This document shows positions 15,736 to 15,886 of a stretch of DNA of 64,000 nucleotides, piece by piece; position 1 is the stretch's first letter; each line of letters begins with the position of its first letter. This DNA comes from Acetobacteraceae bacterium (GTDB lineage: Bacteria; Pseudomonadota; Alphaproteobacteria; Acetobacterales; Acetobacteraceae): positions 18-64,017 of the forward strand of contig JBIPLY010000619.1 of NCBI GenBank assembly GCA_044369385.1, read 5' to 3'. The notes below the pieces were generated by a model that was not told where the DNA came from, searched no databases, and saw nothing but the letters and a program-made list of their open reading frames with translations. The position numbers and the translations under genes are program-made.

Positions 15736-15794
15736 TTACCACAGCGAAAACACCCGGATCTTGTAGGACGATCCGGGTATTTTCGCTGTGGTAA
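15736..15794 (+). terminator. long 24-bp hairpin (terminator or processing site) overlapping the next promoter
   Basis: ttaccacagcgaaaacacccggatc / gatccgggtattttcgctgtggtaa with a 9-nt loop and one mismatch. There is no clear U tail. Confidence 0.5.
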
Positions 15795-15886
15795 AATGAT
15801 GGAGTATTTTGATCGCCTAGCCAGGTGCTACCAACACCCGGCATTACCAAGACGATCTTCCTGCGTGAACACACCACGCAATCAAC
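15788..15886 (+). promoter_or_regulatory. extended -10 box TGGTAAAAT plus structured 5' leader (module copy B)
   Basis: GTGGTAAAAT, then GAGTATTTTGATCGCC-TAG-ccaggtg/ctaccaa/cacccgg-CATTACCAA-GACGATC, then tgcgtg-N7-cacgca and ATG with no SD sequence. Confidence 0.65.

Follow-up and report, generated by a model that had tools for sequence, protein, structure and literature searches.

Convergent extended −10 boxes bound a structured leader module that heads mobile accessory-gene cassettes in a tailed phage

Introduction

Why do four genes scattered through the late-gene clusters of a tailed phage begin with what appears to be the same stretch of noncoding DNA? The question arises in a 64-kb stretch of contig JBIPLY010000619.1 (64,000 nucleotides (nt); hereafter the window), which represents a tailed phage by its genes for sheath, baseplate, portal, helicases, DNA polymerase III beta subunit and ribonucleotide reductase small subunit. 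A first-pass annotation had described four copies of a module, here called A to D, each composed of an extended −10 box and a structured leader that runs to an ATG, and had left two alternatives: a cis-regulatory RNA or the conserved end of a mobile gene cassette. Our analysis suggests that each alternative holds in part, and adds an element that was not foreseen: a second extended −10 box on the opposite strand, which faces the first and closes the module at the start of the open reading frame (ORF). The two boxes form a candidate convergent promoter pair, and we discuss below what such a pair may do on a cassette that moves between phages.

Results

Direct reading of the sequence confirmed the positions annotated for all four copies, and a pattern scan placed an extended −10 box at the head of each; TGNTANAAT occurs nine times in the whole window, and six of these matches fall in the four modules. 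A second extended −10 box, TGNTANNNT, lies on the opposite strand at the ORF start in 4/4 window modules, at most 25 nt from the ATG; it covers codons 2–5, and in module A it occupies the same module position, just before the ATG. Across the window TGNTANNNT has 58 matches per 128,000 positions, which puts the chance of finding one within 25 nt of any given ATG at about 1%. When the −10 match was graded, all eight copies scored (A/B/C type and D) reached at least 5, whereas the rate was 6% among 45-nt windows drawn at random and about 10% at the starts of other ORFs, and in seven of the eight the antisense box lies at +4 to +16. The conserved block of the modules spans exactly the interval from the sense −10 box to the antisense −10 box.

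Module B occupies 15789–15898 on the plus strand. Its sense box TGGTAAAAT (15789–15797) is followed by an outer helix (15811–15818/15850–15857), an inner stem (15820–15827/15835–15842) with its loop at 15828–15834, a 3′ internal loop AUUACCA (15843–15849) and a second hairpin (15862–15880); the ATG is at 15887, and the antisense box TGATATACT is at 15898–15890 on the minus strand. Module C (57228–57336, minus strand) has the same two hairpins with different loops, set between the sense box TGGTAAAAT (57336–57328) and the antisense box TGATAAACT (57228–57236, plus strand); its ATG is at 57239, and its weak −35 element, TTTACC, is the only −35 match found among the four copies. In module A (14425–14529, plus strand) the sense box TGCTAGAAT (14425–14433) precedes an outer helix (14447–14454/14486–14493), an inner stem (14456–14463/14470–14477) and the loop AUUAUCA (14478–14484); the module's own ATG position has decayed to ATA and gene A begins downstream, and the antisense box TGGTAAAAT (14529–14521, minus strand) keeps its module position. 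Module D (6190–6298, plus strand) opens with the sense box TGGTAGAAT (6190–6198), which contains the TAG stop codon of the N-terminal fragment of the terminase; a long bulged hairpin at about 6214–6254, preceded by five A residues (a U5 tail on the antisense strand), and a second hairpin at about 6262–6277 are followed by the ATG at 6286 and the antisense box TGCTAGAAT (6298–6290, minus strand). As had been annotated, no Shine–Dalgarno (SD) sequence precedes the ATG in A–D.

The copies are not all related to the same degree. Modules B and C are identical at 96 of 118 positions (81%), in agreement with the "four-fifths" estimated by eye; module A shares about 60% identity with either, with conserved blocks GTATTTTGATCGCC and CGGCATTAYCA, and a 19-mer from module B matches module A at two mismatches where 0.02 matches are expected by chance. 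Module D is only 52–56% identical to the others, which is the background level, and a covariance model of the A/B/C type run on the window did not detect it; D is therefore an analogue in architecture and not a demonstrable homologue, so that the annotated family of four stands for A, B and C as homologues and for D in layout only. The similarity between B and C starts at GTGGTAAAAT and stops at codon 5, just past the antisense box; a convergent −10 box lying over the first codons explains why the similarity reaches into them.

Relatives of the module were found in other phages and in metagenomes, and the family is widespread, heading KilA-N genes, genes of the phrog_32599 family to which protein B belongs (hereafter the B family) and other accessory genes. 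The B protein recurs unchanged in 23 contigs. An 83%-identical relative of the window phage, contig L053, carries an orthologue of module B (B′); homologues of protein C yielded window-type copies E1 (variant E1b) and E2, in tandem in L057/L062, and E3 in L059; and an otherwise unrelated phage, L066, carries an orthologue of D (D′) with the same layout and compensated stem changes. B-family homologues with a related leader occur in Planktothrix phage PaV-LD, IMG/VR contigs, metagenome-assembled genomes (MAGs) and metagenome contigs. This PaV-LD-type leader consists of TATAAT, 5–14 A-rich nt, a GC-rich bulged hairpin with a 6–7-nt loop and a GUAAYCA-like tail; a covariance model built from the B-family leaders (R1) finds five copies in PaV-LD, where they head two B-family paralogues, ORF099 together with an annotated anti-repressor, the KilA-N gene ORF105L, and ORF091L. 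In the PaV-LD type, nine of ten pairs are compensatory and 95.5% of cells are paired, in an alignment fitted to the model. Further layout variants precede KilA-N genes in L067 and in Nodularia phage 2AV2. The window type resembles the PaV-LD type in gene association, in architecture and in short similarities such as CAAC-ATG-AAT-AAT-NTTACCA.

Broader searches returned little. No match in the window reached the gathering threshold of Rfam 15, in keeping with the annotator's failure to recognise a known riboswitch or leader class; permissive Rfam scans of the module regions of the window, L053, L057, L066, L059, L021 and L014 gave chance matches outside the modules. A DNA pattern scan of IMG/VR for the A/B/C motif gave only three chance matches inside coding regions, blastn of the locus against INPHARED phages gave no match, and an IMG/VR search for loci with the gp5-like protein gave nothing.

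Several neighbouring arrangements were seen among these relatives. In PaV-LD (L045 26133–26217; NC_016564 about 75133–75217) the annotated start of ORF105L lies inside the module hairpin, and the ATG at L045 26136 is the likelier start. Many B-family homologues (L015, L028–L030, L033–L037, L041) have two to four direct repeats of TAGCTAATGTCTAG upstream, replacing the hairpin module; they may form an operator array, by which the B family would be controlled in another way. In L006 (1695–2087; also L012), a Spirulina-MAG/IMG-VR relative, an HNH endonuclease ORF follows directly after the B-family gene. In L007 (2761–2950) a 35-aa ORF, closed by a hairpin and a T-run, is headed by a module-like unit, TGGTATAAT plus a hairpin; lying upstream of a B-family gene, this unit could be a leader-peptide or attenuator variant.

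Folding supported the annotated layout of outer helix, inner stem, asymmetric 3′ loop (CAUUAYCA) and second hairpin. The inner stem is 8 bp, the apical loop 6–7 nt and the asymmetric 3′ loop 7 nt; the outer helix of module C is GAUCGCCU/AGGCGAUC, the second hairpin ends 4–6 nt before the AUG, and sense folds have z-scores of −2.8 to −4.6. Covariation was evaluated over three helices in eight distinct window-type copies, with slid alignments and 500 shuffles as controls: 92.7% of cells are paired, vs. 25–47% in the slid controls; seven pairs have changed on both sides; and the observed score was reached by none of the 500 shuffles. The covariation ascribed to the inner stem is thus upheld, and in a wider alignment of the kind that the first-pass annotation had named as a check; the perfect helix is not, because an A·C mismatch in the stems of B and C leaves them imperfect. 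These data support a structured leader under selection. The motif CAUUA(C/U)CA fits A and B, and its invariance was overstated, since B′ has CAUUGCCA, E2 has CUUUAUCA and E3 has ACUAUCA. A sigma-dependent pause element, a GGGGUA–UAYC pseudoknot and a tRNA-like minihelix with an ACCA tail were also considered and rejected, being neither conserved nor compensated across copies.

Apical loops change far faster than their surroundings and are hypervariable even between near-identical phages. Between B and its orthologue B′, stems and boxes differ by 1 change in 62 nt, loops by 6 in 14 and the remainder by 8 in 39 (counted by eye); L057 and L062 differ at 11 of 840 nt, three of which fall within one 6-nt loop (binomial probability about 6e-5, by our own estimate). 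The loops of D and D′ are wholly unlike, vs. two adjoining 17-nt blocks that are 100% identical and coding sequences (CDS) that are 81% identical. The observation that differences between B and C gather in loops holds as well.

Two hairpins are also obtained when the predicted antisense RNAs are folded; for A, B, B′ and C the z-scores lie between −3.7 and −4.5. For module B the antisense strand reaches −34.6 kcal/mol vs. −22.2 for the sense leader, i.e. it is 12 kcal/mol more stable, and fold energy favours the antisense strand in 10 of 13 hairpins. Mismatches of the sense strand become G·U wobbles there: the A·C in the inner stem of B, B′, C and E2; the C·A in the outer helix of B, where B′ has T-A and C has C-G; and a C·A in L006. 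After the long hairpin, the antisense strand of D reads ...CCGGG CUUUUUAG and that of D′ ...CCGGG UUUUUGUAU, so that hairpin plus U-tract form a terminator signature that would give a predicted antisense RNA of about 70–80 nt. By our own count over the PaV-LD-type, related and Nodularia copies, the 10 nt after the hairpin hold 5–8 U on the antisense strand (3 in PaV1) vs. 1–4 U on the sense strand; the A-rich spacer that precedes the hairpin in the sense direction of PaV-LD-type and Nodularia copies is the same element as the U-rich tract that follows it on the antisense strand. A bidirectional terminator lies near module B (15744–15783, 40 nt further on) and has no counterpart at A, B′ or C; it could also end the predicted antisense RNA of module B. 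The antisense box could be removed by a synonymous recoding, AGTATATCA to TCCATCAGC.

Antisense ORFs of 55–67 aa run across the leaders (14427–14594, 15674–15877, 57249–57416); we rejected them as coding sequences because 1-nt indels between B and B′ break the frame. An antisense extended −10 box, TGATAGAAT, was also observed elsewhere, at codons 4–6 (42399–42407) of a 1243-aa replication gene (38685–42416, minus strand), which has a 270-nt upstream region with hairpins (42420–42690) and, unlike the modules, an SD sequence.

The units that the modules head have definable borders. Cassette A (14410–15788) comprises module, gene and terminator, the last at 15744–15783, where direct reading finds a hairpin, CCCGGATC-N9-GATCCGGG, flanked by an A-run and a T-run; a simple terminator scan with a loop limit of 8 had missed it, and it looks like a bidirectional terminator. 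The whole cassette is absent from L053, in which the gp5-like gene is followed by 9 nt and then module B′; in the window, GTGGTAAAA flanks the insertion on both sides. Cassette C ends in a bidirectional terminator at 56529–56563, and the gene upstream of it in a terminator at 57400–57426. The 3′ end of cassette D (7009–7045) consists of GTAGTTTATGCCCCG and a hairpin (terminator 7018–7041); such ends, sharing GTAGTYTATGCCCCG and a terminator-like hairpin, recur at L053 774–810 and 8058–8090 and at L066 3712–3745, from which it follows that the ORF listed from 7016 really starts at the ATG at 7049.

Cassette D provides the clearest sharing between phages: window positions 6191–7040 are 80% identical to L066 2906–3744, from the −10 box to the 3′ hairpin, in a phage that is otherwise unrelated and whose terminase is intact and essentially unrelated. 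In the window a 1.87-kb insertion (6196–8063), which holds cassette D and a second ORF, separates the ATPase ORF (Terminase_6N, 5194–6195) of the large terminase from its nuclease ORF (Terminase_6C, 8064–8663); GC content is 47% in 6001–8000 vs. about 54% in the flanks. The terminase of L053 is split as well, with different cargo. A group I or group II intron or an intein was rejected as the cause of the split: there is no Rfam intron match, and the two halves are separated by stop and start codons and by independent cassettes.

Modules have also been exchanged as units. Protein C starts MSLS, like the MSIS of B, although its closest homologues (E1, E3; 61–67% identical) start MNNLP and use another module; gene C thus carries a B-type module that was exchanged together with codons 1–4. 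The hairpin of E2 is identical to that of module B, loop included, though the phage differs, which likewise points to exchange of modules. Module–gene units stand in tandem as A-B in the window and as E2-E1 in L057. Together, the presence or absence of cassette A, the sharing of cassette D and the B-type module on gene C bear out the annotated alternative of a mobile cassette end. The cassettes have the layout of morons: own promoter boxes, an ORF or short operon, a terminator, and variable presence between phage genes. An integron attC site is an imperfect palindrome with R″/R′ sites (RYYYAAC...GTTRRRY), placed 3′ of a promoterless ORF and beside an integron integrase; this candidate was rejected because core sites are lacking, the element lies 5′ of the ORF with a promoter, and no integrase is nearby. 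A miniature inverted-repeat transposable element was rejected because there are no core sites and the ORF start belongs to the module.

The cargo genes, all inside late-gene clusters, are of more than one kind. Genes C (56760–57239, minus strand; 159 aa) and D (6286–6990, plus strand; 234 aa) both encode KilA-N proteins, the latter with a DinD-like C-terminal domain; gene B (15887–16402, plus strand; 171 aa, phrog_32599 family) is followed by a 66-aa helix–turn–helix ORF (16406–16606); and gene A (14530–15726, plus strand; 398 aa; alternative start 14593) belongs to neither family and has only a weak, sub-threshold AIPR match. The description of the cargo as unrelated therefore applies to B and A and fails for C and D. 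A reading of protein B as a cryptic KilA-N relative was dropped after a negative profile comparison (probability 1.5%), and cargo D had only weak matches to PADLOC candidate families, so that a defence annotation was not adopted.

Two further features of the window were noted. A GGDEF-EAL gene (cyclic-di-GMP turnover; 638–2320) adjoins phage structural genes; it represents an auxiliary gene of host origin or else flanking host DNA. A second repeat family of about 100 nt, CCACGTGCACC..TTTTATATAGGGGTAA..ATCACGTGGCAC, with paired CACGTG around a TATATA box, lies at 11660–11765(+), 23088–23204(+), 3286–3396(−), 62708–62818(+), 58505–58580(−) and 46895–46946(−), and also occurs in L053; it probably serves core operons as the promoter/operator unit that belongs to the phage itself. 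The use of another promoter-like unit by core genes fits cassettes that carry their own host-type promoter.

Discussion

Our results suggest the following mechanism, to which we give slightly better than even credence: a convergent promoter pair yields a structured leader and a complementary antisense RNA on a mobile moron. The module is the 5′ control region of an autonomous accessory-gene cassette (promoter, ORF, terminator) exchanged among phages of freshwater and filamentous cyanobacteria, and is bounded by two face-to-face extended −10 boxes about 105–110 bp apart. The predicted sense promoter, which would need no −35 element, would start an mRNA with a 5′ untranslated region (UTR) of about 85–100 nt, two hairpins and an SD-less AUG; from the predicted antisense promoter, transcription would begin near the AUG and give an RNA complementary to the whole leader, folded into the two hairpins in mirror image. 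In the D, PaV-LD and Nodularia types, the GC-rich hairpin and U-rich tract would terminate this RNA at about 70–80 nt. Pairing of the putative antisense RNA with the leader, probably beginning by loop–loop contact, together with collisions of convergent polymerases, may keep cargo expression low or set its timing, and the hairpins would serve as pairing and termination elements. Given the convergent −10 box in every copy, a cis-antisense RNA or transcriptional interference is likelier than a riboswitch-like sense leader. The sequence data demonstrate the architecture, the covariation, the borders of the cassettes, their horizontal transfer and the hypervariable loops; promoter activity on either strand, the antisense RNA and its effect on the cargo gene are inferred.

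Several observations weigh against this mechanism. In the AT-rich PaV-LD, the antisense box occurs in three of five copies vs. a background of 19–28%, and is not distinguishable from it; conservation of the first codons could reflect translation-initiation constraints instead. No U-tract follows the hairpin on the antisense strands of A, B, B′ and C, and cyanobacteria are not known to have Rho, so that the predicted antisense RNAs of these copies have no defined 3′ end. The two types of module are not joined by covariance models: R1, of the PaV-LD type, scores 12.5 bits on window copies, and R2, of the window type, only a marginal 18 bits on a PaV-LD copy, neither of them significant, and we therefore do not claim homology of all types. 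A literature search found no transcriptome of the window phage or of PaV-LD. Finally, the sense strand gives the better fold in A, D and PaV2, and E3 and D′ carry G·U pairs that are valid in the sense RNA only. As to the strand under selection, the evidence is mixed and does not decide; a mixed picture would be expected of cis-antisense pairs, in which both transcripts fold.

These strand-specific wobbles also speak for a sense-only cis-regulatory leader, in which the hairpins and a UAYCA-type tail act in the mRNA, as a 5′-terminal stabiliser against RNase E/J or as a site for a phage or host protein that controls SD-less translation, and the antisense boxes are incidental. The covariation fits the sense strand equally well, the hairpins begin a few nt from the predicted sense transcription start site, and CCCGGTCGCATGGGGAC and GACCATCACCGGGGGTA are 100% conserved between D and D′ vs. 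81% identity in the CDS, which suggests sequence-specific recognition. We nevertheless regard this explanation as rather unlikely: it does not account for the fact that eight of eight copies have an extended −10 box on the antisense strand, always at the same place, for an exchanged block that stops just beyond that box, or for a U-tract on the antisense side of the hairpin; the loop motif that it supposes to be conserved differs between copies, and no Rfam family matches.

Quite improbable, in our judgement, is a DNA-level recombination element, in which the −10 boxes are short inverted termini, the hairpin is a cassette-shuffling site and any RNA role is secondary; such an element would work through PeSL-like (promoter-early stem-loop) homologous or microhomology recombination, or through recognition of the hairpin on single-stranded DNA. 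It would account for cassette borders that coincide with the −10 box, for GTGGTAAAA on both sides of cassette A, for the tandem module–gene arrays, for the HNH endonuclease after the B-family gene of L006, and for a module at the split terminase, which recalls the PeSL between g43A and g43B (PMC2839356). Homologous recombination, however, requires identity and not pairing, and compensatory changes with hypervariable loops point to a selected folded single strand; moreover, no recombinase or integrase adjoins the window cassettes, and there are no integron-type core sites. A role in recombination is in any case compatible with the convergent-promoter mechanism and does not exclude it. Recent duplication of a promoter region without function, which would agree with the 81% identity of B and C in one genome, is scarcely credible, being already contradicted by covariation and by the same architecture in several phage lineages, with stems and boxes conserved, stem changes compensated and loops saturated.

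T4-type phages have regulatory cassettes known as PeSL (Arbiol et al. 2010, PMC2839356; Comeau et al. 2014, PMC4122927), copies of which recombine to yield mini-circles. Like the module, a PeSL is a small repeated unit of a strong host-type promoter and a GC-rich stem-loop right after the upstream stop codon; it stands immediately upstream of accessory or ORFan genes, sits at indel or replacement borders between close relatives and also occurs at the point where an essential gene is split in two. Borders of this kind are seen here in the absence of cassette A from L053, the differing cargo of the split terminase and the border of cassette D at the −10 box. The promoters appear to differ: that of PeSL is sigma-70-like, with −35 and −10 elements and an AT-rich upstream region, whereas the module has an extended −10 box and a −35 match in C only. 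Unlike those of PeSL, the stem-loops of the module lie within a leader of about 100 nt that is predicted to be transcribed and has no SD sequence, a second convergent −10 box is part of the unit, and the host phages are not T4-type. The stem-loop of a PeSL ends or attenuates transcription that arrives from upstream, whereas no sense-strand U-tract follows the module hairpins (3′ flanks with 1–4 U per 10 nt); separate terminators precede modules B and C, and the module hairpins do not look as if they stop sense transcripts from the gene before.

Accessory or toxic genes of phages and plasmids are under cis-antisense control in systems such as P22 sar RNA/ant, IS10 RNA-OUT/RNA-IN, hok/sok and lambda OOP. 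In P22, sar RNA is an antisense control of the phage gene ant (PMC5415839). In such systems two promoters face each other, the antisense one lying where the regulated gene begins, an arrangement that the module reproduces at the sequence level, with TGNTANNNT in all four window copies; they make a short structured antisense RNA over the leader, with an intrinsic terminator, and the module may make a similar RNA, although a hairpin plus U-tract is seen on the antisense strand in D, D′, the PaV-LD type and the Nodularia copy and not in A, B, B′ and C; and the loops of their stem-loops carry specificity and are free to diverge. The regulated genes are also comparable, including antirepressor-like KilA-N genes, and one PaV-LD copy heads an operon with an anti-repressor. 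The module differs in having no sequence or Rfam relationship to these systems, a predicted overlap of about 90–100 nt that covers the entire UTR, portability, several gene families under it and multiple copies per genome, and, in the A/B/C subtype, no evident antisense terminator.

Morons of temperate phages, known from lambdoid phage genomics, are promoter–gene–terminator units between late genes. The cassettes are like them in being autonomous units between structural genes, with GC content unlike the flanks and presence or absence between relatives; morons are defined by layout only, whereas the 5′ ends described here are a conserved structured family with a convergent promoter box, across unrelated phages. 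PeSL is thus the closest known kind for the evolutionary role and sar/ant for the mechanism, and by sequence the module belongs to neither.

We further propose, as an unlikely and frankly speculative extension, that the module is a portable self-addressed regulator: each cassette would carry its own antisense RNA/leader pair, with the apical loops under diversifying selection. If so, copies that share a genome, or that meet in co-infecting phages, would not regulate one another, and a resident copy could silence an incoming cassette with matching loops, an incompatibility- or immunity-like effect comparable to that of plasmid antisense RNAs. Mobile RNA control units of this sort would form a new class, one by which accessory genes (possibly toxic or defence-related) spread among unrelated cyanophages and by which even essential genes such as the large terminase can be split.

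In conclusion, the combination of a −10 box, two covarying hairpins and a convergent −10 box would provide a searchable signature for mobile cassettes of cyanophages, and its defined borders could help to annotate morons and to correct start codons, e.g. that of PaV-LD ORF105L. The loops present a case of fast evolution inside an otherwise constrained RNA. Given that almost no regulatory RNAs have been characterised in freshwater cyanophages, our work offers a testable antisense hypothesis, which would explain how accessory genes enter late-gene clusters with their expression held in check.

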